A program made the translations under genes and the position numbers. A stretch of DNA of 63,363 nt, the filler included, from Craspedostauros australis (taxonomy: Eukaryota), in assembly GCA_030167865.1 (NCBI GenBank). It is 9 parts of 9 records of this genome, joined end to end, with 100 filler letters (N's around TTAATTAATTAA, not from the genome) between each part and the next. Parts side by side here need not be neighbours in the genome. Positions count along the whole stretch, not along the records: positions 15,346 to 27,021 come from JALAGF010002165.1; 8 more parts are not named here. One strand, given 5' to 3'. Positions 2,089 to 46,609 of the stretch are shown here, one piece after another. The notes under the pieces were generated by a model. That model was not told the DNA's origin and ran no database searches. It saw only the letters and a list, made by a program, of their open reading frames with translations. The number at the start of each line of letters is the position of its first letter. The stretch's first letter is position 1.

Positions 2089-2534
2089 CGCAATGCTCGG
2101 TAGGATGCTGATACGTACATACTGGCGGAGAAGAGGGAACGGAGAAGAGAGGCAGAACTAGTGCATCATCATTCTCCGCGAGTGTGTACTAATGCAAAGT
2201 CCAACTCTTCTCTCGAGAGCAGATCATACCCGAGAACTACATTATTTCATTGACTGTGGAGAGGGATGGTCGTCTCAATTTTGAATGGATGTGTTTCGCT
2301 TCTGCACACAGAGAGCGATGGAAAGAACTGACATTGTTTCTTCTGCGAAAGGGCGGAGCAAACAAGAGCCCATCCATTTCCCATACTAGTACTATACAAG
2401 TATAACATGTGCATCATGGACAATGAGTCTGGGCAAGGCTTCTCCAGTATTGTGTCCAGGAGGGAGATGTTGATGGCACTTCTTCACCCTCTCCACATAC
2501 TCCCTCGCTCGTTCATTCGCTCATTCGTTGCACT

Positions 2535-4124
2535 CTACAACCTCATCATTCCATTGACGAAATCACCGAACTGATCCAAAAAGCCTCCGTTCTTGTTCTC
2601 GTCACGGAGGCCATTCGCAATGTCGTAGATGTCTTCCACTTCTGGGTTGGATGGCAGCATGTCGAGGTTCTGAATGAGCTTGTACCCGCCCGGTGCATCG
2701 TCGTCCTCCTGCCACACCGAGAATGGCTTGGGCCACTCTCTCGTCAACGCGCCCCACTGCAACGTGCGGAGATAGTACGTGTTGACGAGACCATCAATGA
2801 GGCGTTCTCGCAACATGCGTCCCGCCATACCGAATCCCGTGACGCCCATATCCACCAGGTTGGGATTGACGAACACGGCGAGCTTCAAATCATCGGATTC
2901 CGTCTCCGTCTTGAGCAGCAGCTGCTCCACGTACTCCGCCTCCGACGCCTTGGGACAGAAGAAGAGGATGAGCATGTCTTTCTTGATATCGTGCATCTGC
3001 ACGCCTCCGCACGATGCGAACTGCACGCACGGTGGCAGGGGAGCATCGTCGGGCGAGCCGGTGCTGCCCCAATCTCTGCGTGCTAAAGCGGCGCTGCCCT
3101 CGTCGGGGAAGTAGACGCGCACGATGGGTCCCTCCCATGCAGGCTTGGATGGATCGCGGCCTCCATTCTCGAGTATCGACATGAGTTCCTCCTTTCTGGT
3201 CTCGTCCACCGCATCACTGCTGTCCGAGTCCGCGTCGGCATCATCATCATCTCCATCCTGGGCCTGCTTGGCCATGGCACGCAACTCCGCTCTGGCCTCG
3301 GCCACCTTGATCATCTCGGCTTGGCGCTGTTCCTGCAAGCCTGGAATGATGGCGTACGACAAGGCGCTGACGAACTTCTTCATGAATTCTGTGGACGATT
3401 TGAGGAGGGTGTATGTTTCATCGCCGACCGACGTGTCGAAATCCACACGACAACGTCCCAACGATCCGGTGGCCTCGGCGAACGACGCGCATGCAGCTCC
3501 GGCGATCTCCGCGGCGTCGTCGAGCGAGTCTGGAAGTTCTGTGGCCGTATCCGTGCGTCCAGCTAACGTCGATGTTGTTGGAGAGAAGTGAATTGAAGTA
3601 GCGAGATGAGAAAGGAAGTGTTCGCATATTAGTGTAGCAGCGGATGTGTGAGACGATGGCAATGGCAATGGGGCGATCTTGAGTAGAGTCGCCCAAAGCG
3701 AATCGAGCTGACGCAGACTCGATGGGCGTTGCGTTGGACGCAATTGTCTTGCAGCGTGCAGTGCAATGCAACACAACGCAACGCAGTGCGATGTATGGTA
3801 TCGTGCTTGTTCCCTCTTCCACGGCGTGTGAGTATGCCATCGCACTGGAGTATTCGCCAATGCATGACGTCATGACGACTCCGTCGCTTTCCGTGCATCA
3901 TATGTACGGATAAGTCGACCACAGTGGGAGCTCCAAAGGATACTGATCTCAAGCTGACCTCACGCTGACGCTCACGTACTCGATGCGACGTTGAGTTGGA
4001 AGTTCATGCGGGGCTCAACGGTGGTGACAACCGATTGCTTGATCTGCATCACTCCAACAGGAGCGAACGCAGCTGCCCAGCATGGCAGCAACGCCAGATG
4101 CGCCGCGATGAGATGGCCCCTCAT
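2535..4124 (-). CDS. Plastid-targeted DUF1995-family protein; exons 4124-3980 and 3562-2535
   Basis: Exon 1 [22 protein letters not shown] is a signal peptide plus ASAFAP motif. A GT(acgt)...AG intron at 3979-3563 joins in phase 1 to give ...[17 protein letters not shown]1995-like motifs [18 protein letters not shown] and [22 protein letters not shown]. Confidence 0.8.
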
Positions 4125-4720
4125 TCTTCGCTGTCTGTTCTTGTTTGGTTGGTTGCTTGATCGTGTGTTTGTAGGTGTGGGATTGTTGCTGTCCCGATTA
4201 TAGCTGTCCACGATTGCTGGAGAATTGAAGCCTGCAATGTCTTCCAGCCTCGGGGGGTGACCTGTACTTGAGACTCGTTTGTGGGAAGACAGGACAGAGG
4301 GAGCTACACGCATTCTTCTTGTGCTGCAACCTATCCAACCTTCTGGAATGCCACGATCTATTTTTGGCAACAGAGAAAGAGAGATGATGCGGATCTTGTC
4401 GCTTGGGCAGAGGAGGAGTTCGCGAAGTGGCAGATGACGTTGAAGTTGCATTCTCCTGATTGTGGGACTTTGTTAGTGTCATTCTGTCACTCAACACACG
4501 AAGCAATCATGTTCTGACGTTGATGTGGATTGCTCCCGCCGCCATCGGCACATCCAACACAACAAAGATCGCCCAAGAGGACATCAAAGCCACCGAAAGG
4601 TCATCCGCACCATCGGCATCACTGGCACCATCAGCAACACGATACGACTCCAGAGCAATCCGCAACAATCCACAATAACAACGAAACAGCCACAACTGAA
4701 ACTCTTCAAGAGAGACAAGG

Positions 4721-6897: not shown

Positions 6898-9529
6898 ATG
6901 TTCTACTCCCAGCTCGTCGTGAACAAGAGAGAGCCGCTGGCCAAGGTGTGGGTGGCAGCCCACTGGGGCGACAAGAAGTTCGATCGGCAGCAGATCTTCA
7001 AGACGGACATCTCCAAGTCCGTCGACACCATCGTGGAGAAGGAGAGCAAGCTGGCGCTGCGCGTTTCGGGGCATCTCCTGCTCGGCGTCGTGCGCATCTA
7101 CTCGCGCAGGGTCAAGTACGTCCTGCACGACTGCACGGAGGCCATGGTCAAGCTGCAGATGACCTTCTCGCGCAGCGGCGGCGCCACGAGCAAGGACGAG
7201 ACCCTGCTGGAGGTCGTCAAGGCAACGGCCAACCAGGATCCCACCACCATCGCCAACTTTGGGGAGTACCAGCCGCTCAGCGTGGTCGACGGATCCTTCA
7301 TGCTGCCGCTGCCGGACGAGTCGGAATGGATCTTGGCGGACCCCGCGGAGGCGGATGAATGGCAGGAAGCAGACTCGCAGCGGCGTTACCGCATCGGATC
7401 GTCGACGGACGACACGTCCACATCGGGCCGAGGCGGCTTTGGCTCCGCGTCCGGCTTCCACACGCCCTTTGCCGACGATGCCAGCCACTCGCGTCACAGC
7501 ATCGGCAACGCGTCCACGATCCGCGGTCCGCAAGATATCGACTTTGATGATGAGCCGCTGGGTGGGGAATTTGATCCCAACGACGATCTGGATCCAAAGA
7601 ACGAATCCCTCGTGTCCGATGTCGAGGTTGTCCGTGATGCTGGACCGCTCGTTGACCGAAGTTTCGATGTGGTGAGTGCGACGTACTTGTGCCATGATTG
7701 TGTTGTGCCATGATGGGCTTCATGTTGTGATAATTGGTGAGGCGTGTTCAATTGCACTCTGCGCGGTAGGGTCACATGCCCTTGGATGCTCTTCGTGACA
7801 TCCAGTTGAGATACGGAGCTGCAACAGCTTGTCTCGAACGAAATCTTCAACCTTCGGCGTCTCGCCAAGAATTATCAACTCACCATCCTGTTGCAAATTC
7901 TCCTCTACGCCGCCCTCCATTCGTATACCCACGTCCATATCTTTTGCATGTACGTTATGTTCTCTCATCAACAAACAGGGAGGAGCATCAACAGTCGCGG
8001 CAACGCCAATTGGAAAGGAAGGCGAAGCCCGACCTTCTTTCATTCCTGGTGATGCACCCTTTCCAGATGTAGGCGGCGCATACGACGATGATGCCATGCC
8101 GCCACCACTGCCAGGTGACGACGATGACGACGGCATCAACAACGCCAATGTCAATGCCAGAGAGTCCTCCCTCAACGGCAGTTCCATCTCGGGATCCGCC
8201 CGCGGCTCTCTCCGCGCAGCCACCAGCATCGGAGGCCTGGACTCCATCAGCGAAGATGATCATTCGGCAACCAAACCTTCCGCTCCGTCCGCAGGTCAGA
8301 AACGAGCCGCGGCGGCTGCTGAGCGCAGACGCATGAAACGCCGTCAGGTCGTCATCGACAACAACCAAATCGAGCTGTCCAATGCTGAAATAAAAGACAT
8401 GCTCAAGGACTCCAAAGCTCTAGTGCGGACCGTGCCGCATCCTGCCGAATGGGATGAAGACGATGACGAAGGCGACGAACAGGGCGGTGATGCCGACTAC
8501 CTGCGCCACAGTTTGGCAGGCTTCGGCAGCGTGCATCGTGGTTCGTTGTCGCGGCGGGATCCGCACCCCAACGTCGAGGCGTTGCCGTACCACGACAGAC
8601 TCCTACGACCCGGTCTGGCCGATCGTGGCTACTTGCATCCGGAGCTCATGCTGTTGTGGACGTCCAACTTCTACAGTGGCAGAGAGCAGGCACCACCGTA
8701 TGAACGGGTTGCAGGGGATGATGATGATGACGATGACGACGACAGTAGTGACGGCAGCGATGATCGTGATGGCAAGGGCGATGAAGCAGATGCTATGGCT
8801 GCGCAGCGAGCAGAGGACGAAGCAGAGGCCATACGCAAACGCGCCAGATCTGGTGAAGGTGACGACGAGGATTCTGCACAGATCGCAATTGCGGGCGATG
8901 ACGCCAGCGAGGGAGTCGGTGGTGCGCGATCCCAGCAAAGAACCGACGCGGGTGCCGGCTTCGATGATGAGGGCATGCCGCTACCAGCCGATGTCGACGA
9001 CAACAACGACGACGACATGGGCATCGGCATCCAAGCAGGTGAAGATGATTACAATGACGACCACATGTCGCTTGGTTCATTTGGAATGGTGAACGAGTTT
9101 GATCTTGGCGACGATGATGACACGGACGGTGATGGCGAGGCCACTGACGACAACGCTCCATCCGGAGGACAGCGAGTCATGGCGACCACCACAACAGCGG
9201 CTTCCGCGGCAGCGACAGCCGGTGGTGGCGGCGGCGAAGGGAGATCTGGTTCCACGGCACGATGGCACAGACACACGGTACAGGTCCTCGAGTCGTTGCA
9301 GCGCCGCATGGGTAAGGAGGGCGGGCAACGCAGACAGAGCGTTTCACAACTCTCATTCAACCAGCTTAGCAGGCGCCTGTCACGGCACGACGCTGCCAGC
9401 GTGTTCTTTGAGCTGCTCCAGCTCAAGACATGGAACTTCATCGAGGTCGATCAGGACAGTGCCTACGGCGATATCATCATCACACCGGCCGAGCGGTTCG
9501 ACGAATCACCGCCAGGCAAGCAGTCGTAG
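6898..9529 (+). CDS. RAD21: Cohesin kleisin Rad21/Rec8 family; exons 6898-7671 and 7979-9529
   Basis: N-terminal MFYSQLVVNKREPLAKVWVAAHW...LALRVSGHLLLGVVRIYSRRVKY. C-terminal winged helix AASVFFELLQLKT..IEVDQDSAYGDIII. Phase-0 GTGAGT...CAG intron 7672-7978. Separase-like site SDVEVVR. Rad21 vs Rec8 is not resolved. Confidence 0.9.
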
Positions 9530-10125: not shown

Positions 10126-12732
10126 TCACGATGGCGATGTGCCGCCGGTGTTGACGGCGCGGTTGACGAATTCCCCGTTCACGATTTCGGGGATGCTGCC
10201 ACCGTGCGATTTGGGACTGTTGCCGGCGAAGACATCGGAGGCTTGGATGGCAACGGCCGGGTCAGGATAGCACAGCTGCATCAATCCGATGAGGCATTCT
10301 GGCAACTCGTCGTCTGTGTGGCCTTCGATTGTGAAGCCAAACGTCACAAGCACCTTCTTGAAGTATGTGTCCTTCATGAAGCAGATGCCCTTCTTGGCGA
10401 GGTACGGGAATGGGTGCAACGAGATGTCGAATTCCATGCACGACATCTCCGGATGGCGGTACAGGAAGCCAGTCTGTCCAGCGCGTTTGATGAGGAAGGG
10501 CTTTCCGTTGTAGCTGGAGATCCAGGACGGCAGGCCGATCTCGGCCAGGTTCTGAGCGTTTGGCACGCACTTGAAGCGCGCCATGAACTTCTCGTCCGTC
10601 GGCGCACGGCGGCACCACTCCTCAAACAGCTTCACCGCATTCACGATGCTCTTCTGAGGGTCTTCGGGAGGCGGCTCCTTTGATGGGTCGTAACCCTCCG
10701 CCGTGACGCGACGGAGGATGTCCCTCGTCTCCTGTTTCATGACGAAGTACATGGTGATGGTGAAGCCGCCACCGTCGTTCGAGGACTTCGTCATCTTGGG
10801 TGGATCGGTGGGAAGGGCGACGCTGATGACAAATATGTCAGGTGCGTTCCAAGTCTTCGGCGTTCCGTCTTTATCACCATCGAAGGAGACCTTGGGCAGC
10901 TGCACACGAGACGCCATGTCGGGGTACCTGTTCGGCGATTCGAAAGCGTCTGTGTACACCAGCTTGTACAGCTCCCCGGGTGATGGGATCTTCTTCTTGC
11001 CGTTGGAGATGTATCCCTGCGATCGGATGTGGATGCCGCTGGGTGGAACGCATCGCCATCCAACGAATCTGTGCCCGTCCGCGTTGAGCGCGGTGTCCCT
11101 GGGATTTTCGATCTGCATGGCCGTCGTGCCTGCAAGAGGCTTCGGCAATGCCACGTGCTCGACGCTGTCATGCGAGTCGCTTGACATCGATGGTTCGATG
11201 GCTTGGGATGGATCGCTGGCAGCGTTTGGCTTGGAGGCGGCACGTTTTGGATTCTTCTTTGCGCTGCTCGTTTTCTTGCGTGAGGTTCTTGCCTGTGTGC
11301 TTGCTTCCACTCCCATCTTGTGCTGCGCCGTGGATGGCACTGCCACAGTGACAACCGTCGGCCTCTCTCGTTGCAGGTGGCTGAATAGGAGCATGTTGGC
11401 AAATACGACGACGTACCAAAAGAGTGTCGAAGTGATCGCCGAAGATCTGGTGAAGACCAAGGCGAGGTTGAGCGTGACACCTGCGTAGAACAACGACGAA
11501 TCAGCGATGGTCCATTTGGGGTTCGCTTCGTCCAGTGCATGTGAGCTCGTTCCGGCAGCCATCACGGACACGCTGTGTGGCGAAGCAGTGGAAAGGCTTC
11601 GTGTTTGGTGGCTGGCAGACTTGGCATCATCAACTGCTGCTGCGTGCCCTTCGTCCGCATCATCGATCGAAACGCTGGTTGCTTCCTCCTCGGCCTCGTT
11701 GGACGTGCTGCCGGAGCTGTCATCGATGTGCTGTCCTGTTGGCGCCGGACTGATGAGGTTTCTGACCGTGTAGGGCCCGAGCGACCAGAGCCTGTGCCCT
11801 GAGAAGTCCTTGTGTTTGGAAACCTTCCTTGGGGGTGGAGGCGGCGAATGGCCGCCATTGGCAACGGGTCTGTCCTTGCCGGTCTTGCCGTCGCCTGCGT
11901 TTCCGCCATTCGGCGGTTCGCTGAGCTGCCCCGCGAAGGTGAGGGTTGTATCGACGGTGGGGTCATGGATCTGCAATATCTCCTTGTTGTACGCGTCCAC
12001 GCTGGCCTGCGCGATGATATCGGTGAGAATGGCCAGCCACTGCATGAGGTCTTTGTGGGTGTCGAAGCAGAGCTTCCATTTGGTGATACCGTTGAGCTTG
12101 ATGCTGAGGGCGAATGGCGTCGGCGCGCCGGAATGCCCGAAGCTGGCACCGACGGAAGCCTTTTCCTTGACGATGTCGAGATGTCCTCGGCCCGTGGTTG
12201 CTCCGCTTTCGCCGGGCATGTGCATGCCCAGAGACGCCGAAGCCTTGTTGACGGTCTGCTCCAGCCAGCTGCCCTTGGACTTGGAGGATGACGGGAAGAT
12301 GGATTGGCCCGACAGCAGCGCTGATGCCGTCATGGGATTGGACGTTGCCGGCCCTGTCCCGGTCGCTGACGGAGCATCCGGGATGGGGGACAGCTGTTCG
12401 TCATTGTGCAGCGCCGCCCCCGCATCATCCACAACCAAGGTGCCATCCTTGCACATCTTGTAGTACCAGAGCGTGGTGCCACGCAGAACCAGATACCGGC
12501 GCTCCCACGCCGCGCTGACGGAGTACTTGCCGAAACCGGAACGGCGCTTCCACACTGTCCCCGTCATGCGGATGGCGCCGGCATGGTTGGCGGCATCGGA
12601 CGATGGGAGCTCCGGAACGATGATGTTGCTGTCCCCATGGTGTGTGCGGTGACGCCCGAGCAACGCCTGCGCCATGCGACGCGGACTTGTCGGTGGCGTG
12701 AGCACGGTAAACGCGCCGACCGTGGGTGACAT
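10126..12732 (-). CDS. PH domain + hydrophobic hairpin + DUF1336 (EDR2 C-terminal-like) protein
   Basis: Split PH domain (TGTVWKRRSGFGK..WERRYLVLRGTTLWYY ... WKLCFDTHKDLMQWL). C-terminal IRSQGY..KKKIPS, SYNGKPFLIKR, FGFTIEGHTDDELPECLIG. Confidence 0.85.
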   Translation of the reverse strand: MSPTVGAFTVLTPPTSPRRMAQALLGRHRTHHGDSNIIVPELPSSDAANHAGAIRMTGTVWKRRSGFGKYSVSAAWERRYLVLRGTTLWYYKMCKDGTLVVDDAGAALHNDEQLSPIPDAPSATGTGPATSNPMTASALLSGQSIFPSSSKSKGSWLEQTVNKASASLGMHMPGESGATTGRGHLDIVKEKASVGASFGHSGAPTPFALSIKLNGITKWKLCFDTHKDLMQWLAILTDIIAQASVDAYNKEILQIHDPTVDTTLTFAGQLSEPPNGGNAGDGKTGKDRPVANGGHSPPPPPRKVSKHKDFSGHRLWSLGPYTVRNLISPAPTGQHIDDSSGSTSNEAEEEATSVSIDDADEGHAAAVDDAKSASHQTRSLSTASPHSVSVMAAGTSSHALDEANPKWTIADSSLFYAGVTLNLALVFTRSSAITSTLFWYVVVFANMLLFSHLQRERPTVVTVAVPSTAQHKMGVEASTQARTSRKKTSSAKKNPKRAASKPNAASDPSQAIEPSMSSDSHDSVEHVALPKPLAGTTAMQIENPRDTALNADGHRFVGWRCVPPSGIHIRSQGYISNGKKKIPSPGELYKLVYTDAFESPNRYPDMASRVQLPKVSFDGDKDGTPKTWNAPDIFVISVALPTDPPKMTKSSNDGGGFTITMYFVMKQETRDILRRVTAEGYDPSKEPPPEDPQKSIVNAVKLFEEWCRRAPTDEKFMARFKCVPNAQNLAEIGLPSWISSYNGKPFLIKRAGQTGFLYRHPEMSCMEFDISLHPFPYLAKKGICFMKDTYFKKVLVTFGFTIEGHTDDELPECLIGLMQLCYPDPAVAIQASDVFAGNSPKSHGGSIPEIVNGEFVNRAVNTGGTSPS

Positions 12733-15245: not shown

Positions 15246-15345
15246 NNNNNNNNNNNNNNNNNNNNNNNNNNNNNNNNNNNNNNNNNNNNTTAATTAATTA
15301 ANNNNNNNNNNNNNNNNNNNNNNNNNNNNNNNNNNNNNNNNNNNN
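15246..15345. other. Artificial contig spacer; same at 27022-27121, 33900-33999, 35784-35883, 37553-37652, 39194-39293, 46510-46609, 47979-48078
   Basis: Each is exactly 44 N + TTAATTAATTAA (stops in six frames) + 44 N. Confidence 0.98.
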
Positions 15346-17957
15346 TCGGATCGATCTTGGCACTGGCCTTGATGGTGTGGTTGCCTGTGCCCTTGCCCTT
15401 GTTAACCTCGATTCATACATGACACCTTTTGCAACAAGCCGTTCAATCATCTGCAAACCAAATGCCTTGTGCTCCAATTGATGCTCCTTTTCGACCAGCA
15501 TGTTGTGGGCGATCCAGGCATTCACCCTCAGGATGTCCAGCAGGTGAAACATCAGGGGCATCCACACTCGTCGGCATCGGAGATTCGGTCTGTAGTAGGC
15601 GATGAACTGATCGCACTTGTCCACGCCTCCCATCCAGTGATTGTAGTCGTCAATCATCTTCGGTATGCGAATCCTCACGTTCCAATTGCTCCCCCACACT
15701 TGTTTGAGGTGAGGCTTGTTCGTCTGGGTCTCCCTTGGCTTGTGGCAATCCTTCTGCACTGTCTCATTTCCGTAGTGGATGGTGCTGACCATCAAGACAA
15801 CATTGTTGTCGACCCATCTTGTGATGACGTGATCATCAGATTGTGTCCACAGATACAGCGAATTGAAGCGTCCATCCTCAATATCTTTCAGCTCCTTCGG
15901 AGGGAAGCCACGACGATTCCGAGCAGTGCCAACGATTCCCAGCCCCATTCTCCTGGAGTTCTCAATCACAGTCTTTGTTGTGAAAAGATTATCCATCGCC
16001 ACGATGTGCCCCAAATTTGGATCAAGAACAGCCATCAACTCTTGCACTGTTTTGTTGATCTTCGTTGTCTTATCCAGTCTTCCAGCAGGAAGTATATGGT
16101 ACATGAACCCAGATGCAGAGCAGCACAGCGCGAAGAACTTGTATCCTTCTTTGATGGGCTTTTGCTTTATGCGATGGGTTTGGCTTGATCGGCCTTTGAA
16201 GCGTACCATCATCTTGTCAATGGAGCAGGCAAACCCTGGCTTTGCGCACACCTTCTGAGAGACCCGGTTGGTATGGTCCAGCAGAAGTTGGACCTTGGCA
16301 TACCATGAGCGATTGGAAATGATCACAGGGGGTATCGAAGGTGGTGGTGGTGCAGGTTTGCAGGCTGCCCTGCTCTCGGACCCATGTGGGGCAACATTGT
16401 CAGAGAGGTTGGATAGCGTTGATGAAGATGTTGACGCATCAACTGACGTTCCAGAAGTTGTGGCCGTCTGCGATGATGATCTGGTGCCGCGGCTCTGATC
16501 TGTTGGAGAGACATCATCATCCATATTGTCTGCAGATGTATCGCTGCTGTCAATTGAAGAATCTGACTGGCCATCCGATTGTTCAGCCATTGCAGTGAGA
16601 TGGATGTGATTCCAAATGACTTGGTATCGTGCTCTTGTCATGTATGTCATGAGCTCGTGAGAAGGAATGGAAATGGAAGCAGCTCTCCAGTAGTCCCTCT
16701 TTGCAGGGGCGCCGAAGAAGCCCATGTAGAAGTACATTGCAAGGAATATGTACAGTTCACATACTGTCACCAGTTCNGCCTTGGATCGACTGTTTCGAAT
16801 ATGATTGTTGGTGTGAAGCTGGATGCTCTCCACAAGAGTCTCAGGGAAGAAGATTTCCAAGATGCTCTTGATTGTGGTGGCAATATTTGGTAGTCCACGG
16901 AACTTGGGCTTGTGATTGCCCACAGGGAGTGGTGTGTAGTTGTTTCGATGGTTGCTGTTGATGTTGATGGTGTACTGACTGCCATCAACTGTTGCACGGG
17001 TGCCGATGCTTTCCTGGTTCCCAATGCTTCCTTCAGATGGGTCAGCTGTGATTGCAAAGTCAGTTGTGATGGTTTCATTCGATGGGCTGGCATCAGTTTT
17101 GATGCATGCAGTGTTGCTCTGATTGGATGCCGTCTCCATCTGCGTGGCCATACGTGTTGACATGCATGTGGCCATGCGCCCAGCAATGCCAGATGGATTG
17201 CTGACGATGCTCGTTCCATCCACTGCAGGTAGTGTGACAATGCCGGCATCAATTTTGCGATCCACTGCAGGTGGAATGATGATGCTGGCATCAATTTTGC
17301 CCTCCACCGCAGGTGGAACAATGATGCTGCTCTTGCCATTGGTGTGCATGGTGGTTGATGAATGATTGGTTGTTGGCGGGTTGTCGTCGAGGCCCCTGAG
17401 GGTGGTNNNNNNNNNNNNNNNNNNNNNNNNNNNNNNNNNNNNNNNNNNNNNNNNNNNNNNNNNNNNNNAAACCACATGCGGACGAGAGCTGGTGTAGGGG
17501 AGATCAGGCTCTGCGAAGAAGGACGGCTGGCTGCTGGTTGGTGTGGAAGGTGGCTCCTTGCGCTTGGCACTGGTGAACTTGACCATGATGGATGATCAGT
17601 GTGGTGATGTGATGATGTGATGTTGTGATCTTTTGATTTTATGATGTGATGGGAAGGGGAGATGTGACGACAAAATGGGATGGAGAGACCGAAATTGGGA
17701 GGGACGGGCTCGCCGAATCAATTTTTGCGACAGTCCCGCTGGCCAAAAAACGATTCACGAGTAGTTCAGGCTCTGATTGCGACACANNNNNNNNNNNNNN
17801 NNNNNNNNNNNNNNNNNNNNNNNNNNNNNNNNNNNNNNNNNNNNNNNNNNNNNNNNNNNNNNNNNGATATGTTACACGTAAACGTCGACGTCAAAATGGA
17901 GAATCCGTGAAATTTTTTTGCTATTTGGATTCACTATAGGCCCTGGGTCATGAAGGG
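15346..17957 (-). mobile_element. piggyBac-like DNA transposon; transposase ORF 17586 to <15346, gapped and 3' truncated
   Basis: SIDKMMVRFKGR...KPIKEGYKFFALC, VAMDNLFT, GIVGTAR, WVDNNVVLMVST, YNHWMGGVDKCDQ (DDE_Tnp_1_7 motifs). 42-bp tandem repeats near 17210-17335. The outer end near 17957 (CCCTT.. on minus) is tentative. Confidence 0.9.
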
Positions 17958-21995: not shown

Positions 21996-23435
21996 TCGTT
22001 CTCTCCTTCCTTTGTTGCTCTCTCCCATTTGTCGGACCATTCAATTTCTTCTTCACTGCTTTCTTCATCGTTGTCTCCTTTTGGGTCCTTCCTGTCTAGT
22101 GTGTTGCTCTCTGCAGTCTTGTTGTCTTCAGCCTTGTCCATTGGTGCAACCTTGCTTGATTGCTCTTCCATCTTGTCTTCTCCCTTCTTGCTTCCTTCTG
22201 CCTCTTTCTGCTCTTCCTTTTCCATGTCTTTGGTGTTTTTCATCTTCCCCTACTTCTTGCTCATCACCTTTCTGATTGCATCTTTGGATGATCCCATGTA
22301 TTGCTGTCCTGTTTTCTCTTCTTTCCCATTGATCCCTTCCTTCTCAATGCACTGCTTGCACACAACTGGGAATCCTCTTGGCATTGTTAGCCCTTCTTCT
22401 GGCTTGATCCACGCTCTACATTCCCTGTGTGCTGGCTCTCCACATGCAGTGCATCTAACTGCCACCACTGCCTTTCCTCATCCTTTGCAGTACTTTCCTG
22501 CTGCACACTCGACCTTGCGCACTCCTTGTCCTTGTTGTCCATCGTTCTTTTCCATTTCCGCACTGTTCTTTCTTCTGCTAAGCCCTCCTTTGGCCTCTCT
22601 CTCCCCTCTGTGTCCTCCTGTGGTTTTGTTGTTGGTTGCTCCTCTGATGTACACTTCTATCAGCATTTGCCCTGACGGTCATGTCATCTTGCTGCTTGGT
22701 GTCGTCATTGTTGGTTCGTTGCTTTACTAGTTAATTTTCTTGTCTGTTGTCTTTCTTTGATTTGTTTATTCGTGTTGTTTTGCTGTGACAATTTCTTCTG
22801 GAATTTTTGTTCCGTTTGGAAATTGTACACTGCTCCACTCATACTCTTTGCAAGGTGCGCGCACATGCTGTTGCGTAGCTACTTGGATCGCGGGTATGTT
22901 ACAACGACTCGTGCGTAGACATGGTACTTTTTCAGGCGTTCAATTGAGAACCACCCATCAACCAAGATCGACTCACCACCACAAACTCAGAAGAAACCAG
23001 AACCCCAACCAAAGAGCGAAGGACATCGAAGAAGAGATCTCATTTGCAACGGGCATGAGTGGATGCGCAAACCGATCTCACATCGACCATGGCCATCCAT
23101 CATTGATTGCTCCAGCAGCAAGGATACAGCGACGAGACACACCCGCACCTGTCAACGACAGCGCACGAGAATCCAAATTCCCAACGGTGCCATCTCGTGC
23201 AAGGGTCCTTTGGGACAACATCTTCGGACAGCTTGTCTGCGCCATCCATTCTTCCGATCCGCGTGAGAATTCTGCTAGAGCTTGGCTCCTGCTCGATTAC
23301 CCCACGCACTCAATCGCAGTACAAGCTATTGTGCGAGAAGGAGTGTTCTACTCTATACTCGTACATCCGATGCGTTTACATCGCAAGAACGCCGGCCGCC
23401 GATCTGCTGGATCCGCAAGGAGGAGATCTGCCTTC

Positions 23436-26384
23436 ATGAGGCGAGGTTCGCTTTCGACCATCAGCGGCTGTGCTGTGTTCGTGGCATCCGTCACGATGAT
23501 GACGAGCATGGCCACCATGGCAAGAAGCGTGGCTGCATGGCAAGGATCGCCGTTGCACACAACAGCAGCACGACGGCATCTCTTCGCCAACAAGATCTCG
23601 ATTCTCCATGGTGCGCAGCATTCCAGGCAGCAAACACTCATTCCTTCAGCTGCTGCTGTTGCTGCTGCTCGTTTGCCGTGGGGTGCGTCCCTCTTCCAAA
23701 CCGGAACCTCTAGCGATGCAGGCGGTGACAATGGAATAGCGGCGGTATCTGCATCTACGACGGCGTCAGGGACGAGCACTGCCACCACGAACCGAGTCCC
23801 GACCAACCAAGAAATCGTGGAGCGTCGGTTGGATGCAATCAAAGAAAAGCGGTTGGCCCGTCAGCAATCTTCGACGCAACGTCGTGAGCGCAACCTGCAT
23901 CTCAAAAGGTTGCTACACACGCAATCAGGTGGTGCTGATTACGCTGTCCCTCCCCTGTACGCCGTCAAGGTGTGGGTCGCAGATGGCTTTCGCGATGAAT
24001 TGAAATTGACGGGACGGGAAAAGCGTGGCAGGGTATTCTTGGAACGCAGCAAGGTCCAGACCTTCCATGATCTCAAGGGTGAGATGCATGCTTTCTTCCG
24101 TGCCTTGCGCAAGGATACGTACCTGCTGGAGGCTAGCTTGCCGGTCGTCACGGAAGAGGGCACCATCCTGTCGCCGTCGGAATATGATGACGATGCGACC
24201 GAATCATGGCCGATTCGTACCGATGCGGACGTCGCGCGGGCGTTCCGGGCAGCAGATGACCTCTTCCAATCGAACACGACCAACTTGGTGCGTCCATCGA
24301 TGGTCATTTCCGTCCTGGAGAATCCGGATGCTCCCAAACCTCCACCGATTCCATCGTATTTGGTGGATCTGCCCGATCCACAAGATGCCGAAACCATGAC
24401 GATGATCTCCTTCTACAGCTTCCCACCGAACGGTGGCATCGACGACCCCGAGCAGTTTGCGGCACAGCTACGCAAGACATGGAAGCCATTCCATGCCCTC
24501 GGACGTGTTTACGTGGCGCACGAAGGCGTCAATGCGCAGATGAGCATCCCATCGAACGTGCTGGACAACTTCATGGAATGCTGCCGATCCATACCGGAGC
24601 TCGAACACATGGAGAATGACATCAACATCGATCCTAAACCATTGACTATGGAAGAGTTCGCAGTGGCTGGCGTTCCCAACCGTGGCAAACCAGCGCCGCC
24701 GTTCCGCAATTTGCACGTTCGGGTGCGTCATCAGGTGGTCGCGGATGGGTTGGACAAGTCTTTGGATTGGCAGTCGGCCGGGTACGATATGCCGCCGCTG
24801 GAGTGGCATGAGACTCTGAAGCAGGCGAGCCAACGCGCGAATGAAAAATCTGGCTCGAATGCAACCGCGAGTGCGGACGCTTTGGACGCCCCGCCCATTG
24901 TGCTGGACTGCCGCAACACGTACGAAACGGATGTCGGTATTTTCGATGGAGCCGAGCCGCTGAACACTGACAACTTCCGAGATTCATGGGATGTCCTGAA
25001 GGAACGGCTGGCGGATACACCGAAAGATGCCCCTATCATGACGTACTGCACGGGCGGCATCCGCTGCGTCAAGGTGGGAGCCTACCTGACGCAGGAGATG
25101 GGCTTCACCAACGTGTCGCGATTGGCGGGTGGCATCATCGCCTACGACCGCACGGTCTCGCAGGAGGTTCCAGACGAAGAATCCATGTTCAAGGGCACGA
25201 ACTTCGTCTTCGATGGTCGGCTGGGCCGCAGCATCACAGATGATTCCCTCGCCGTTTGCATCACATGCGGCGGGCAGACTTCGTTGGTGAGCAACTGTCG
25301 CAATGACAATTGCCACAAGCGCATGGTCCAGTGCGAGCGCTGCCGCACAGACTTCATGGGCACATGCTCCGACGCATGCCGCACCCGCGTCATTAACGGT
25401 GCCATGGCTCCACGTCGTGGGACGCCAGGTGGCGGCGTTTCCGGTGAGGAAGACGATTCGCAAGATCTGGATTCTTCCAGCGGCGAGACAATATCCACAA
25501 CAACGTACGATTCCATCGACGACTACAGCATCGGCCATTCCACGTCTGCGCCATGCTTGTTCTCTGAAATGGAGCTCAACACGAGAGCCTTCTTTCCTTC
25601 GGGTGCCCACATGGTGTCCGGCGAATCGCAAGGACGGTTTCTGACCCAGCTCACCGCCATGGCACGCGAAGGCCGCGTGCTGGAATTGGGAACGTTCAGC
25701 GGATACGCGACGGCGTGCTTTTGGGAAGGTGCGCGCGATGCCGGTGCCGCGATGCAAACCACAGGAAACAAGGATCATGGTCCGTACATTTTGACGATGG
25801 AACGGGATCGACGCGCCTTTCAGCTGGCCCATGCGCAGCTGAAGGTGATTGGTGAGCAGGGCATGGAGGGCGCTGCGAAGGAGATGGCAGCTTTGCGTGA
25901 TGATCCTTCGTCGCTGCCGGAGTTGCAAGACACCAAGATCACGCTGCCGCCGTTGGATGGCGTTGCTGCATGCGATATGTGGCATGTGACGGATGCCCTT
26001 GCCACCGTCGAAGAATTGGCCGCGGGCAAAGGTGGGGATGACCAACCCGCACCATTCGACATTGTCTTTGTCGATGCCGACAAAACGCGGCTGTTGGATT
26101 ACGTCGAGGCCTGCCTGGCCAACGACAACGTGCTGAAGAAGGGTGGCATGATTTTGGTCGACAACGTACTGTGGAAAGGCCTCGTGCTGGAGGCAAGCCA
26201 GGGAAGCTTCACCTCCGTCGCGGACACGCACGATGCCGGGAAGGAAGAGCTGCGCAAGAATCGACGCGCGCGTAAACTGGCAACGCAGATGCATCGATTC
26301 AACGAGGCCATCGCCAAAGATGAACGGGTGGATGTGCAATTGTTTCCCATCCGCGATGGTCTCAGCATGATACGGAAGAAGTAG
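23436..26384 (+). CDS. Fusion of TrhO/UPF0176 rhodanese (tRNA U34 hydroxylase family) and class I cation-dependent O-methyltransferase (CCoAOMT/TrmR-like); putative plastid presequence
   Basis: TrhO motifs ISFYSF, LGRVYVAHEGVNAQMS, LDCRNTYETDVGIFDGA, YCTGGIRC (Cys codon at 25047), FKGTNFVFDGR and a Cys-rich tail. OMT motifs VLELGTFSGY, FDIVFVDADK, GGMILVDNVLWKG, PIRDGL. Start is ATG 23436 or 23370. Hydrophobic leader ends SVAA-W. Confidence 0.88.
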   Translation: MRRGSLSTISGCAVFVASVTMMTSMATMARSVAAWQGSPLHTTAARRHLFANKISILHGAQHSRQQTLIPSAAAVAAARLPWGASLFQTGTSSDAGGDNGIAAVSASTTASGTSTATTNRVPTNQEIVERRLDAIKEKRLARQQSSTQRRERNLHLKRLLHTQSGGADYAVPPLYAVKVWVADGFRDELKLTGREKRGRVFLERSKVQTFHDLKGEMHAFFRALRKDTYLLEASLPVVTEEGTILSPSEYDDDATESWPIRTDADVARAFRAADDLFQSNTTNLVRPSMVISVLENPDAPKPPPIPSYLVDLPDPQDAETMTMISFYSFPPNGGIDDPEQFAAQLRKTWKPFHALGRVYVAHEGVNAQMSIPSNVLDNFMECCRSIPELEHMENDINIDPKPLTMEEFAVAGVPNRGKPAPPFRNLHVRVRHQVVADGLDKSLDWQSAGYDMPPLEWHETLKQASQRANEKSGSNATASADALDAPPIVLDCRNTYETDVGIFDGAEPLNTDNFRDSWDVLKERLADTPKDAPIMTYCTGGIRCVKVGAYLTQEMGFTNVSRLAGGIIAYDRTVSQEVPDEESMFKGTNFVFDGRLGRSITDDSLAVCITCGGQTSLVSNCRNDNCHKRMVQCERCRTDFMGTCSDACRTRVINGAMAPRRGTPGGGVSGEEDDSQDLDSSSGETISTTTYDSIDDYSIGHSTSAPCLFSEMELNTRAFFPSGAHMVSGESQGRFLTQLTAMAREGRVLELGTFSGYATACFWEGARDAGAAMQTTGNKDHGPYILTMERDRRAFQLAHAQLKVIGEQGMEGAAKEMAALRDDPSSLPELQDTKITLPPLDGVAACDMWHVTDALATVEELAAGKGGDDQPAPFDIVFVDADKTRLLDYVEACLANDNVLKKGGMILVDNVLWKGLVLEASQGSFTSVADTHDAGKEELRKNRRARKLATQMHRFNEAIAKDERVDVQLFPIRDGLSMIRKK

Positions 26385-26826
26385 GTTGGCACGGAAGATG
26401 CGACAGTAGGTATTATATAATAATATTTAGTTTAGGCAACATTAGAATTGGTACGTTGAGTTGTTTTGGTTCGTGGCTACACTCGCTCCGTAGATACGAG
26501 TTGAGTGGGCTCGGGCACGTGTCGCGGAAGCGAAGGCAATGACACGAATCCTTCCCATTGGCTGTTGTTGTGATGGTGCAGAATCCGCGCAGAAAAGAAC
26601 GTTCGAGAAGGAACATGGATCCTGGCCCATGATGACACATGAAATGGAAGCAACAGGGACACCCAACATTTTGTCCAGAAGATCCATCTTGAACGTGATT
26701 GAAAGTTTTCGACATGACATTTTCTCTCTTTTGACAGAACTGATCGAGAAAACGATAGTGTTGCTCATTTTTACTAGTTTCCAAAATTTGNNNNNNNNNN
26801 NNNNNNNNNNNNNNNNNNNNNNNNNN

Positions 26827-26965
26827 GAGTGAGACAAAGTTGGACAAAGTCAGACAAAGTTGGACAGAGTGAGACAAAGTTGGACAGAACTCGGCAAAAA
26901 TGGACAATAGCAAATCGACTTTGACAAAATTGGACACAATTGGACAAAGTTGGGCAAAGTCATCC
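26827..26965. repeat. 10-bp tandem repeat (GACAAAGTTG-like), probably subterminal to a non-autonomous DNA transposon
   Basis: gagacaaagt/tggacaaagt/cagacaaagt periodicity next to a gap and a contig end. Confidence 0.75.
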
Positions 26966-27121
26966 AAACACAGACATGAGCCAAGCACACGTGTAAACAA
27001 AAATGACTACGGAGACAAGTGNNNNNNNNNNNNNNNNNNNNNNNNNNNNNNNNNNNNNNNNNNNNTTAATTAATTAANNNNNNNNNNNNNNNNNNNNNNN
27101 NNNNNNNNNNNNNNNNNNNNN

Positions 27122-27233
27122 GCTGTCCTCCTGCTTGTGGTGGTTGCTGTGCTGCCTGTGGTTGTGCAGCTGCTTGTCCTGCAGGTGCGGTTGCGGCTGT
27201 GGCGTTGTTGGGTTGGTTGCCTTGATCCGCCAT
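27122..27233 (-). CDS. N-terminal fragment of an unknown ORF (possibly retroelement gag), truncated by the contig end
   Basis: MADQGNQPNNATAATAPAGQAAAQPQ preceded by a CAA-rich 5' leader. No diagnostic motif. Confidence 0.3.
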
Positions 27234-28019
27234 GGTCGCTCTTCGAGTTTCGTTGTTGTTGTTGTTGGTTTTGGTGCGTGCGACCAAACCAAACGATCAG
27301 AGCGCGTGTTTCACGTTGCGCAGAGGAAGCGTGTGCAGGTTTTTCACGTGACCGGAGGTGTTGGGGGGTGAAACCTGTCTGTTCTGAAAAATTATGACTG
27401 TGCGGAGCGGTCATTTGCTCAACGTGGATCCTACNCGTGGTTTGTGCGGTATCGTCTGTCCATCGACACTCATTGTTCGGATTCGGCCAGATTCGGGAAT
27501 TGGCACTAAATCTGCACACCACTGGGAACGAACGAATCTTCTGTTTGCAATCCACCCGGATCTTCTGGTGATGTATCCGCGCCTTGACGCTTCTGTTGTT
27601 GTTGCTGTTGTTGCATCGATCCTTCGGATACGTGTTTATCTTTGTTTATGATTTTATTAATAGTATGTGCTGTTTGGTTTTCTTTTTTCTTGCTTGGGGG
27701 TTTCTATTCTACATTGATGGTACGGTTGCATGGTATTATATTTGTGGTTTTGACAACATGTTGTGTGATGGGAGCGTTCGAGTTGGTACTCGTATTTGGA
27801 TTGGGAGGAGGGAGCTTGACGAAGCACTTGCTTTGGTGAGATGATGGATGCCACGAAGCAAGTTGGAAAATCGTCCCTGTTTGCTGATCGTGTTCGACTC
27901 CGCTGCATGCCATTCCTGCTTTGGCAATAAGACCCATGAACAGGACGGGGCGTTGCTGGGGATGTTCGGACGTGAATCATGCCCACGCTGCACTGCAGTG
28001 GACGCAGCAACAACAGAGA

Positions 28020-42604: not shown

Positions 42605-45600
42605 GCGAACTCTCTGGTGAACGGCCATCTTTCAACAATCGCAACAGCGGGAAACCAGCAGGTCATCACGTTGATGAGGTTTCCGTGCTCGCTCTTCCTG
42701 CTCCCTCCGCCATCCAGCCACATAATCTTATGGGATATGCTGTGGTCAGGGCCTGCCGCGTTCACGCCGCTCGTACTGATGGCCCCAGCATTCGGGCCTG
42801 GAATCCTTATGGCGGTGTGGGTCAATGCGACATTGGTGCCAATGTGAGCGCGACTCCGTACAAGGAGGTCCTGAGGGATTACCAGCCTTTCTCCTCACCT
42901 CTCATGCTGGCGGCAGCTGATGCTCTCGCTGAGTCCATGGTATGCCCGGGTGAAGGCTTCCTGGACGTTCCCACGTGCGAGGGGTCGGCTATCTCCGTCC
43001 GGACTGCACTCTGCCCCAACCTGGCTGAGACGCTCATCTCGCCGCAGTCCATCGTGCGACAGAGTGACAACGCCTTCCAGCGCTTCACATTTACAACCAC
43101 CCTACAAGGCGCCACACTCACGTTCCATGGTGCAAGCGGTGAGTGCTCTGCCTCTATGACCCAGTCCAATGGATTGTACTTCTTCAACGGCGACTCCACG
43201 CGGTCACCCATGGCGTTCGCCATTCAGACTTCGTCACTGGCCTTACAGGCGGAGCTATGGCACTTGCGCCTGGGACACCCTGGCATGTCGCAGTTGGAGA
43301 AGTTGCCTGCGCATGTCACTGGCGTCCCTGGCAAGCTACGGTCCAACGCACACCCGTTGCGACACTGCACGACGTGCAGCCAGGCTCACCGCCAGAAGGC
43401 CGCTCGCGGACCCAACGTGGACGCTGTCGAACCGCATCCAGGCGCTCGGTTCCATGCAGACTTCGGTTTCATGCGTGCCACCAACAAGGCATACGGTGCT
43501 GCAAAGCCGCGCGGTCGCGATGCCAATCGCCGTGTTGTCCTGTCCCTTGAAGGATTCACGTCGTACCTCCTCATCACGGATGCGTACACGCGATACACGT
43601 GGGTGTTTCCGACGAAGGACAGGTCGCCTCCGGTTGAGATATTCTCCAAACTTCTGGGTGATTTTGGCCGACGTTCGGGTCATCGCGCGGTGCGTGTCGA
43701 TACAGGCGGGGAGCTTGCTCGATCTGGAGCTTTCCAAGTGGCCGTCCGCGATGCTGGGTACAATCTCGAGCCCACTGGCGCTGGTTGCTCCTGGATGAAT
43801 GGGAAAGTGGAGCGTCTGAACCGCACTTTCGGCGTCATGACGAGGGCACTGCTGTATTCCGCGGGTCTCAAGCCGCAGTTCTGGGCCCTTGCGCTCGTGC
43901 ATTCGGTATACCTGAAGAACCGGTTGTGGCATGCCTCCATCTCCAAGACTCCCTACGAGCTCCAACATGGGGTCAAGCCAGATCTCGGGCACCTACGTGT
44001 TTTTGGGTCTCGTGTCACTGTCCGGAAGCCAGGGCATCCGCCTGCCAAGCTTGACGTTCACACGTACAATGGCATCTTCGTGGGACACACGGCGACACCG
44101 ACTCTCCACCAATACTACGACCTTGATTCTGGCCGCATCAAAACAGCCGGCAACATCGTCTTCGACGAGGTCCACTTCACATCCAGCAATCGGCCTCCAG
44201 GACCGCAACTTCTGTTCGAGCTGGGATTCCGTGACCCCCGAGGTGATGCAGCATTGGTCCCTACGAAGGACGGCGCGCTCAAGGGTGACAATGCGGATGC
44301 AGGGCGTACACCCGTTGAGACATGCGTTGCGTGTGGTGATTCGGAATTGCACGCAGCCGCTGCCGCATGCTCATCCACACCTCGTCGTTTCGCACGGTCG
44401 CTGGAAATGACAAGTGAACCTTTCGGTTTTCCGTTCGCGCAGGACATTGAGGTGAATGGGTCTGATCCATGCGCTGGGTTGGTGCTGGTGACCGACGATG
44501 CTTGCGGGCGACTGCAGCTGCAGACTTGCAAGCCTGGCACTCCAGCGGCTCGCATTCCCAGGTGGCGGTCGCGGCTACGGTCTGCACATCTGCTTACCCT
44601 CGATGGCGACGACGTGTTGCGTGGTGATGATGTCGTCCGCATCGTTTCGAACGCAAGACAGCGCCAGACGAGTCCAATCATCGCTATCTTCGCTTTCGAT
44701 GAGGCACGCAATGCACTCTCCCAACAAGGTGTTCCACAACTCTACTTCGACCAGCTACGACATGTTAAGGACGTCATCCGGCAGATATCGCCACGCGCTC
44801 GCGCCGTTGCTGCTGCACCCAAACTCACGCGGCGCAAGTTGCTGTTGGGCGATGACTGGGATGAGTGGCAAGCTGCAGAATTCAAGCAGATGGAGCAATA
44901 CCACCATCAAGGGATGTTCGGCGATCCAGTGGAGCCTCCATCTGGCGCGGCTGTGTTCAACTGGGTCTGGGTATATGTCGTGAAAGCCCACGAGAACAAT
45001 CGCAAGAAGGCCCGCGCGGTGTGTGACGGTTCCACCCGAGGCGGCAACGTCCGTGTATTTGGTCACACGTATGCTGCCACTCCCGACCTCACCGAGTTCC
45101 GCATTCTTGTGGCCATCGCGGCTGTCCAGCGCCTGCTCATCTTTGGGGCTGATGTTGCCAATGCATTTGCTGAAGCTCCAGCAAGCGCCCAACGATATTA
45201 CATGAAGGTGGACGATCAGTTCCGTTCGTGGTGGGAGCACAAACATGATGCTACAATTCCGCGTGGCCATGTTGTGCCTGTCCTCAAGAACCTACAGGGT
45301 CACCCTGAGGCGCCTCGGCAGTGGAGTATTCATGTCAATGGAATCATGCGCCGCATGGGCCTGACATCCACCACCCACGCTCCATGTCTCTACACTGGGG
45401 TCGTTCAGAGCGAGCGCGTCTACATCTTGCGACAAGTCGACGATTTCGCCGTGGCAACCGCTCGACAGAGCACCTACATCGCGTTCTGCGATTTACTCGA
45501 CAAGCAGCTCAACCAACCGATCACTCGACATGGGCTCTTCTCACACTACAATGGACTTGATCTCACGCAAGGAAGGTCGCATGTGACGGTACACTGTACT

Positions 45601-46509
45601 ACGTATCTGAACAAAGTGCTGCAAAAGCATGGTTGGAAAGACCTGCGGTCGTCACAACGACTTCCCATGCGTGCTGACAATGGGTACATCAAGCAACTGG
45701 ACAATGCTGAGGTCCCGGCTACTGACGGTGAGCGACGACAGCTACAGTCGGCATTTTTCAATTATCGACAGGCCATCGGCGAGCTGATTTGGGCCATGGT
45801 GTCTTGCCGTCCCGACATTTCGTTCCCGGTGGTGAAGCTCAGCCAGTTCTCTATCAATCCGGCCAAGCTCCATTATGAGGCAGTCAAGTACCTCTTCCGC
45901 TACATCGCTGCCACGCGGGAGCTTGGGATCACCTACTGGCGACCGTCACCACTGCCTGATCTTCCTGATATCCTGGTGCCCGTCCCTCTTTCACCACCGG
46001 AGGACGTTTCGCATAACGTGGATGGTCATACAACGGTCCGGTTCTCCACGGTCTATGGCTACGTGGATGCTGACTGGGGATCCGATATTCGACATCGGCG
46101 CTCTGTCACTGGCATCGTGTTCATGTTCGGCGGCGCTGCCGTCGCATGGAAGACCAGAGTCCAGCCAACTGTGTCCCTCAGCAGCTCCGAAGCCGAATTC
46201 GTTGCTGCCAGCGATGCTGGCCGCATGGCTCTGTGGCTTCGCTCCATCCTCGATGAGATCGGGGTGCCTCAGCAGCACGCAACTCTCATCTTCGAGGACA
46301 ACCGAGGAGCACGCATGATGGCCAATGCAAGTCAGCCTACACGGAATTCGAGACATATTGATATCCGGACCTTCGCAGTCAGTGACTGGGTGGATCGGGA
46401 TCTTATTCTTATCGAGGACGTCGCGTCCGATCTCAACGCTGCAGATGCGTGTACCAAGCAAACGCCTTCGGTTCTCTTCTTCCGCCATACTGACTTGATC
46501 ATGGGTCGC
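42574..46509 (+). CDS. pol: Copia Pol (PR, integrase, PDZ-like, RT, RNase H), in the -1 frame relative to gag
   Basis: CDIGAN, ELWHLRLGH..CTTC, HADFG/DAYTRY/DTGGE/NGKVERLNRT, KARAVCDG, ADVANAF, RQVDDF, YVDADWG, SSSEAEF, EDNRGA, RHIDIR. Confidence 0.93.
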
Positions 46510-46609
46510 NNNNNNNNNNNNNNNNNNNNNNNNNNNNNNNNNNNNNNNNNNNNTTAATTAATTAANNNNNNNNNNNNNNNNNNNNNNNNNNNNNNNNNNN
46601 NNNNNNNNN

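Follow-up and report, generated by a model that had tools for sequence, protein, structure and literature searches.

We describe a nuclear gene of the diatom Craspedostauros australis in which a TrhO-type tRNA hydroxylase module and an O-methyltransferase (OMT) are joined in one open reading frame (ORF). The gene lies at positions 23436..26384 (+) of a stretch of 63,363 nucleotides, filler included, that was made by joining nine parts of assembly GCA_030167865.1; we call this whole stretch the window. The part that holds the gene comes from record JALAGF010002165.1. Our preferred reading, to which we give a probability of roughly 55%, is that the protein would be a two-step synthase of 5-hydroxyuridine (ho5U) and 5-methoxyuridine (mo5U) at the wobble position (U34) of organellar tRNAs, probably in the plastid. 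It starts from what can be observed directly, namely the single frame, the order of the domains, the residues essential in TrhO, the OMT residues at the S-adenosylmethionine (SAM) and metal sites, and the fact that the fusion is widely conserved.

Such a gene has been published before. Sakai, Kimura and Suzuki 2019 (PMC6599085) reported a yceA-trmR fusion in Phytophthora sojae, P. ramorum and Phaeodactylum tricornutum; they picked yceA as the TrhO candidate because it is fused with trmR in those organisms, and they treat the fused domain as trmR. An earlier note on this stretch knew of no description of the fusion in a eukaryote; these named cases are such descriptions. Phytophthora and Phaeodactylum are called 'bacterial species' in section 8 and the legend of Fig 3b of that paper, and in its Supplementary Data 2 both Phaeodactylum and Thalassiosira pseudonana have an entry of 1 for TrhO and of 0 for TrmR (PMC6599085), so the fused OMT was apparently not counted there. 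Its Discussion states that eukaryotic TrhO homologues suggest a 5-oxyuridine-type (xo5U) modification in eukaryotes. No later or other paper on the fusion besides PMC6599085 was found in our literature search, which had subscription-only papers outside its reach. On sequence comparison the gene is a real orthologue of the published fusion, of known architecture and with a predicted function in eukaryotes. Since the architecture is already in print, the value of the window is that of one more orthologue; what we add is a conserved beta-grasp domain and the breadth of the distribution of the fusion.

A single open frame

One open frame runs from 22785 to 26384 (+), and the 982 residues read from the ATG at 23436 are without an internal stop. 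The gene is divided as follows.

23436..26384 (+): whole coding sequence, 982 codons plus stop, intronless; an alternative in-frame start is at 23370
23436..23555 (+): N-terminal leader with a basic start, hydrophobic residues 9-19 and SVAA followed by W35; candidate signal peptide with a diatom-type cleavage motif
23556..23804 (+): Ala/Ser/Thr-rich stretch, poorly conserved (no conserved columns in 18 sequences), with a transit-peptide-like role suggested by its composition
23805..23942 (+): conserved basic helical segment, residues ~124-169, with an NQ..V..R..-type motif and a near-invariant R131; helix at model residues 2-16
23943..24335 (+): predicted beta-grasp domain (PB1/ubiquitin-like fold) with an inserted loop, residues ~170-300; no Pfam family
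24399..24737 (+): UPF0176_N, the TrhO N-terminal acylphosphatase-like domain, residues 322-434 (PF17773, E 2.7e-17), which carries R429 and R431
24876..25145 (+): Rhodanese domain, residues 481-570 (PF00581, E 3.1e-8), with the active-site loop CTGGIRC at 25047-25067 (residues 538-544)
25191..25382 (+): Rhodanese_C Cys-rich tail, residues 586-649 (PF12368, E 4.9e-15), with invariant Cys and His
25383..25508 (+): acidic Ser/Gly/Asp/Glu-rich linker, variable across the 18-sequence alignment
25509..26381 (+): class I SAM-dependent OMT of the cation-dependent type; Methyltransf_3 (PF01596) at residues 850-982, E 1.5e-25

The earlier note had read one uninterrupted ORF from the TrhO module to the OMT, and this is confirmed: all 982 codons are free of stops, and the fusion is a genuine one in a single frame. 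The motifs that it quoted (CTGGIRC, ELGTFSG, DADK, DNVLW, the acidic linker, and SVAA then W) are all present in the translation. Further, the protein can be aligned end to end with 17 diatom homologues, some of them transcript-derived, with the frame unbroken, and no sign of introns was seen. Among 120 homologues listed in the search described below, seven MMETSP transcripts marked complete carry both halves. It is from these transcripts and the unbroken frame that we take the gene to be a single transcript. A 565-base contig from one sequencing run is identical to 25872-26436, a range that is uninformative on the junction or on expression.

In-frame ATGs occur at 22896, 23055, 23370 (22 codons upstream of 23436) and 23436. 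The G+C content of third codon positions (GC3) is 0.33-0.60 in the frame before ~23400 and 0.6-0.7 from ~23415, and in the bona fide coding part it is 0.70. The N-terminal extensions of the homologues are similar in length to that of the window protein. Given these extensions and the rise of GC3 at ~23415, a predicted translation start at 23436 or 23370 is reasonable.

The TrhO module

The domain order of TrhO (acylphosphatase-like, Rhodanese, Cys-rich Rhodanese_C) is present in the window protein, with all three domains above the Pfam cut-offs. Mutagenesis of E. coli TrhO identified C200, T201, G203 and R205, together with K112 and R114 on a basic sheet beside the active site, as needed for activity (PMC6599085). 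The annotated K-12 protein is 34% identical to the window protein over 331 residues (E 6e-51). The CTGGIR loop (538-543), of the CXGGXR type, is identical in the two, CTGGIRC of the window corresponding to E. coli 200-206. R431 takes the place of R114, and R429 that of K112, the latter change being conservative. The loop and both arginines are invariant in the 18 aligned diatom sequences. The best PDB match of this part is 9j5o, deposited as tRNA uridine(34) hydroxylase (E 7.7e-27), and it aligns through Rhodanese_C.

Because of the domain order, the essential residues and the matches to E. coli TrhO and 9j5o, we file the N-terminal enzymatic half as a member of the TrhO family with predicted hydroxylase activity. 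The complete TrhO/UPF0176 rhodanese module proposed before is thus borne out by three Pfam domains and by every residue that is essential in E. coli, K112 being present as R429.

The O-methyltransferase domain

The OMT of the window has the Methyltransf_3 fold with SAM-binding residues and an Asp/Asp/Asn metal site of the TrmR type. When residues 690-982 were compared with solved structures, the fold proved to have its N-terminal half too, from ~692; diatom-specific inserts stand between this and the C-terminal half. There are two such inserts, and an Arg-rich one (941-947) stands ahead of the last helix. Invariant in the 18 diatom sequences are E750, G752, E789, R790, D880, D882, K883, D909, N910, R943, R944 and R946. 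The glycines of the SAM motif, the acidic end of strand 2, DADK and DN are all kept; by coordinate arithmetic they equal TrmR G62/S68, E85, D133/K136 and D159/N160.

TrmR turns ho5U into mo5U; its residues R86, R90 and R178 are conserved in TrmR orthologues only, the rest of PF01596 lacking them, and R86 contacts the U33 phosphate and SAM (Ryu et al. 2018, PMC6158493). We mapped the three arginines by coordinate arithmetic from the chain coordinates of 5zw3 and 2gpy and the alignment of fusion OMTs. For R86 and R90, a 66-residue segment of the Vitrella fusion was aligned to 5zw3 57-90, where an E-R pair equals TrmR E85-R86 and E789-R790 of the window. The counterpart of R86 in this mapping is R790, and that of R90 is Ala794, both invariant in the 18 diatom sequences; residue 793, which adjoins Ala794, is Arg, Lys or Gln across them. 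With end-anchored coordinates (chain residue 216 on the last residue, and 2gpy 173-211 gapless with the C-terminal 58 residues) R178 would fall at ~R944, within the invariant cluster R943/R944/R946.

A profile of eight fusion OMT domains has its best matches, over the full length, in 3tr6 (7e-54), 3cbg (2e-52), 3r3h and 2hnk (6e-48), which we take to come from Coxiella, Synechocystis, Legionella and Leptospira, respectively. Several of the best-matching solved family-3 OMTs have reportedly been assayed on hydroxycinnamates. The solved TrmRs 8k1f (2.7e-32) and 5zw3 (4.2e-32) rank 37th-38th, below the plant CCoAOMT 1sui (8.5e-39), and by this profile ranking TrmR is not the PF01596 subgroup to which the domain is closest. 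In Supplementary Data 2 of Sakai et al., Coxiella and Legionella are entered as TrhO-positive and TrmR-positive, and without CmoA/CmoB (PMC6599085). If our attribution of the structures is right, the best-matching solved OMTs may therefore be partners of TrhO in those bacteria.

We stop short of calling the domain a strict TrmR orthologue, because the counterpart of R90 is Ala and the solved TrmRs rank below CCoAOMTs; it is probably a family-3 OMT that works like TrmR. The complete class I OMT that had been proposed is confirmed, and the domain belongs to the CCoAOMT family with its catalytic residues intact. The kinship with Bacillus TrmR has to be loosened, in that TrmR is not its nearest relative and one of the three TrmR-specific arginines is replaced.

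Basic helix and beta-grasp domain

The conserved region upstream of the TrhO module (residues ~170-300) had been overlooked, and the earlier inventory of domains was to that extent incomplete. Pfam has no match for residues 1-321 at E values up to 10, and no usable match was obtained for the N-terminal part in Protein Atlas. An AlphaFold2 model of the region, made with a 33-row alignment, has a mean predicted local distance difference test score (pLDDT) of 88.9 and a predicted template modelling score (pTM) of 0.77. In a structural search against representatives PB1 domains come out on top: the match to 1wmh_B has Z 9.8 and a root-mean-square deviation of 2.1 A with 82 residues aligned, and all seven chains with Z>=8 are PB1 domains. 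Foldseek with the same model gives marginal matches, the best with an E-value of 2.7e-3 and 13% identity. On the model, this region is predicted to be a PB1-like beta-grasp fold; its likeness to the PB1 family, which in sequence is marked by an acidic OPCA motif or a conserved Lys, is one of fold.

The domain extends beyond the diatoms. A hidden Markov model of the diatom region matches 15 of 43 distant, non-diatom-like representatives, and the matches lie upstream of their TrhO module.

Distribution of the fusion

PF01596 is found together with TrhO-type domains in 119 of the 120 homologues listed for query residues 320-982. The named ones in this list are diatoms, save one labelled Alexandrium, and the best match is 69% identical over the same residues. 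An exhaustive search of cluster representatives gave 5099 matches at E<=1e-3. From the longer and more distant representatives 43 were picked by hand; two of them are without the OMT and the other 41 are fused. Organism names were obtained from 8 of 20 representatives that were looked up: Chattonella, Vitrella, Lagenidium, Rhodosorus, Protostelium, Cyclospora, Mallomonas and Phaeothamnion. The fused representatives include a red alga, a chromerid, a coccidian, an oomycete and an amoebozoan. A homologue search with the OMT only returned solely fragments of diatom fusion proteins.

The earlier note had suggested such an architecture search, and the fusion recurs both in the list, mostly from diatoms, and in the distant representatives. 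Because of these counts (119/120 and 41/43) we regard the fusion, as far as the matched sequences tell, as old, widespread and under long-term selection, and as present in organisms that have no plastid.

Two entries stand apart. The sequence labelled Alexandrium tamarense (P0082) is 56% identical to the diatom query, which is in the range of centric diatoms, and could be an assembly contamination or a diatom-derived gene. The model from Lagenidium giganteum (P0270), flagged as low quality by its source, contains a mitochondrial-type poly(A) polymerase domain, two TrhO modules and an OMT.

Bacterial relatives of the O-methyltransferase

A search of prokaryotes with one genome per species gave 598 pattern matches, of which 590 were confirmed, and the best 80 loci (31-44% identity) were used. 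In two of these 80, one alphaproteobacterial and one gammaproteobacterial, the OMT gene is followed immediately by the start of a TrhO gene. The flank scan covered 68 ORFs of loci L001-L040, and the flanks of L041-L080 were checked for TrhO only (tblastn). Neighbours in the 40 scanned loci are mixed: TrhO is found in one, and a dehydroquinate-synthase-like gene lies directly upstream of the OMT in four (L021, L022, L025 and L036; ~2500-4600 in each), an arrangement that we take to be that of a mycosporine(-like amino acid) cluster. Three loci are beside aminoacyl-tRNA synthetase genes and five beside M16 peptidases, and two have NUDIX upstream and a poly(A) polymerase downstream of the OMT. 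U32 peptidase (TrhP) neighbours are absent from the 68 flanking ORFs of L001-L040.

A quick maximum-likelihood tree was made from 111 OMT domains, with 31 hand-picked eukaryotic rows and with Bacillus TrmR not among the rows. The OMTs adjacent to dehydroquinate-synthase-like genes form a clade of their own, apart from the fusion domains, with a Shimodaira-Hasegawa-like approximate likelihood ratio (SH-aLRT) support of 99. The two TrhO-adjacent OMTs group with a Pelagibacteraceae sequence (84), and the eukaryotic domains are not placed with them. Outside the main bacterial cluster are 30 of the 31 eukaryotic fusion domains; as the backbone is unresolved, no donor lineage is taken from the tree.

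There are also side observations at single loci. In L021 an ATP-grasp ligase gene follows the OMT gene. In the gammaproteobacterial loci L023 and L030 the OMT gene immediately precedes a pcnB-type poly(A) polymerase gene; this link, and that of the Lagenidium model above, may be a coincidence.

Leader and targeting

By the rule used in the ASAFind literature, diatom plastid presequences have a hydrophobic signal-peptide core and, after it, a cleavage site whose +1 residue is F, W, Y or L. The leader of the window protein has a hydrophobic core at residues 9-19, with a mean Kyte-Doolittle value of 2.18 over these 11 residues, and AA precedes W35. To see how general this is, we studied 73 full-length homologues with a Met start and a long N-terminal extension. 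A comparable hydrophobic core is found in 39 of them, and 26 of the 39 have a small residue followed by F, 8-30 residues downstream. In 200 shuffles of the tails this motif was seen in 13.7 sequences on average and in 21 at most.

It is plausible that the leader is a diatom plastid import signal of the kind outlined above; plastid targeting is in this sense a prediction, made for a start codon that is itself unproven. An ASAFAP-like site had been proposed for the leader. The hydrophobic core, AA-W and the enrichment of the F motif in the homologues agree with that proposal, but the plastid location is a prediction only, and there are orthologues in plastid-less organisms. Also the placement 'in a diatom plastid' needs to be divided. 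The window is nuclear eukaryotic DNA, with frames for Rad21/Rec8, PCMT, a PiggyBac-type transposase and a copia-type retroelement among the neighbours, and the gene is located in nuclear DNA and not in the plastid genome; the plastid is the predicted destination of the protein, as the resemblance of the leader to a bipartite diatom presequence suggests.

Proposed function and alternatives

In our preferred reading, a nuclear-encoded multi-domain protein would be imported into an organelle, most likely the plastid. There the TrhO module would use O2 to convert the wobble U34 of tRNAs for four-codon boxes into ho5U, and the attached SAM-dependent OMT would then convert ho5U into mo5U on the same bound anticodon loop. 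The beta-grasp domain and the basic helix would probably help to hold the tRNA or a partner protein. The tRNA substrate, the mo5U product, the compartment and the role of the beta-grasp domain are what we infer here. That formation of ho5U is coupled to its methylation, as first proposed for this gene, still appears to be the most economical interpretation of a single-frame fusion with intact catalytic residues.

Diatom plastid genomes have 27 tRNAs in common (PMC3971590). With only so many shared tRNAs, single U34 tRNAs must presumably read whole boxes.

A number of points weigh against the proposed function. The best NCBIfam model is the TrhO equivalog NF001133, and the score of 158.6 bits (E 1.7e-46) is just below its cut-off of 170, for a model that is bacterial and a match that is broken by eukaryotic inserts. 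The invariant Ala794 and the rank of the solved TrmRs below CCoAOMT count in the same direction, and family membership does not fix the substrate, since some close bacterial OMTs adjoin dehydroquinate-synthase-like genes. Fused orthologues exist in a plastid-less oomycete (Lagenidium) and a plastid-less amoebozoan (Protostelium). According to a review, mass spectrometry of Chlamydomonas did not reveal xo5U derivatives. Finally, biochemical or RNA data on the gene or any eukaryotic orthologue were not found in our literature search. Apart from these points, ho5U and not mo5U is the assignment given to a mass in two plant tRNA surveys, with a TrhO homologue predicted to be chloroplastic, and xo5U terms are absent from a bioRxiv preprint on Arabidopsis chloroplast tRNA.

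An alternative is that the same chemistry, ho5U and then mo5U at U34, takes place in mitochondria, or in mitochondria as well as the plastid. Lagenidium and Protostelium fit such a location, as does the fusion listed in Phytophthora (PMC6599085). The closest bacterial OMT-TrhO gene pairs among the best 80 loci belong to an alphaproteobacterium and a gammaproteobacterium; however, the OMT tree does not group the eukaryotic domains with this proteobacterial pair. Likewise a strong hydrophobic leader is present in only 39/73 of the full-length homologues, a count in which many metagenome gene models may start wrongly, but the leader in the window has a signal-peptide-like core and then AA-W, and many diatom homologues have the textbook small-residue-F motif that is typical of plastid and not of mitochondrial import. 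We hold such a location to be unlikely. It is also conceivable, though likewise unlikely in our judgement, that U34 is not modified by the two domains one after the other: the OMT would then act on another substrate (a catechol-like small molecule, a protein or a different position in RNA), or the end product would be ho5U and the role of the OMT a separate one. The solved OMTs that match best are family-3 enzymes with TrmR lower and the counterpart of R90 is missing, the bacterial neighbourhoods are mixed (4/40 loci beside dehydroquinate-synthase-like genes, 1/40 beside TrhO), and the plant surveys are in line with ho5U as the end. Against this, the counterpart of R86 and an invariant Arg cluster near the expected position of R178 are present, and the dehydroquinate-synthase-adjacent OMTs are the separate clade described above. 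Further, the fusion with TrhO is kept across very distant eukaryotes and bacteria have OMT-TrhO gene pairs, and therefore a shared pathway is favoured. That two adjoining genes were read as one by an artefact of assembly or annotation is very improbable. The junction is without spanning RNA reads from C. australis, but the raw DNA between the modules has no stop or change of frame, the linker is short and in frame, and the same joined order is seen in the seven complete MMETSP transcripts and in many independent genomes.

If the two-step synthase is real, diatom plastids, and possibly the organelles of many protists, decode family boxes with bacterial-type xo5U and not with an unmodified 'superwobble' uridine, which touches on the way in which minimal sets of organellar tRNAs work. 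No xo5U pathway of a eukaryote would have been defined enzymatically before it; Sakai et al. suggested only that such a modification might exist (PMC6599085). A wider proposal, which we offer tentatively and consider possible rather than probable, is that mo5U, regarded as bacterial, is made in the organelles of many eukaryotes (diatoms, other ochrophytes, red algae, chromerids, coccidian parasites, oomycetes and some amoebozoans) by an ancient beta-grasp-TrhO-OMT protein. It would let the U34 tRNAs of minimal sets read whole boxes, and the beta-grasp domain would be a new, eukaryote-specific accessory for binding tRNA or a partner.

Genomic surroundings

ARAGORN finds no tRNA genes in the window. 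The other frames and elements are the following.

1159-2088: PCMT, a long frame of the window
8096-9529: Rad21/Rec8 C-terminal region, a long frame of the window
10126-12732 (-): EDR2_C protein, a long frame of the window
15298-17586 (-): PiggyBac-type DDE transposase (DDE_Tnp_1_7, E 8.5e-48)
42730-46557 (+): copia-type polyprotein with gag_pre-integrase, SH3-like and RVT_2 domains
58167-59690 and 60464-61948 (both -): two tandem neighbouring Glyco_transf_61 (GT61 glycosyltransferase) genes

Opposite the coding region of TrhO and OMT there is an antisense open frame at 24984-26339 (-) with 451 codons and without a Pfam match; it is most likely a side effect of a coding strand rich in G+C. Directly downstream of the fusion gene, at ~26700-27600, there are runs of N (X in the ORF translations), so this 3' flank is a gap region of the assembly.

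Comparison with known systems

The closest known systems are the yceA-trmR fusions of Phaeodactylum and Phytophthora. The same two modules are joined in one stramenopile gene, and the Pfam architecture in the window is that of the named diatom proteins. The difference is that the window comes from another diatom, and that the paper is silent on localisation, product and an N-terminal domain (PMC6599085).

With E. coli TrhO (YceA) the window protein shares the three-domain module at 34% identity, the identical CTGGIR loop and the conserved pair of basic-sheet residues. In contrast to the E. coli protein, it has loop insertions, an NCBIfam score just below the cut-off, and a beta-grasp domain and an OMT on its flanks. 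TrhO-type modules are likewise present in human TSTD2 and in plant rhodanese-like protein 7, but without a fused methyltransferase and with a predicted function; the plant TrhO homologue is predicted to be chloroplastic in a coconut survey.

The OMT resembles Bacillus subtilis TrmR (YrrM; 5zw3/5zw4) in its PF01596 fold, its SAM and metal-site residues, the counterpart of R86 and an Arg cluster near the position expected for R178. However, it has Ala in place of R90 and three inserts, and its profile match to TrmR (4e-32) is below those to many family-3 OMTs. Of these, 3tr6, 3cbg, 3r3h and 2hnk match the fusion OMT profile best among solved structures, but they stand alone and are not fused to TrhO.

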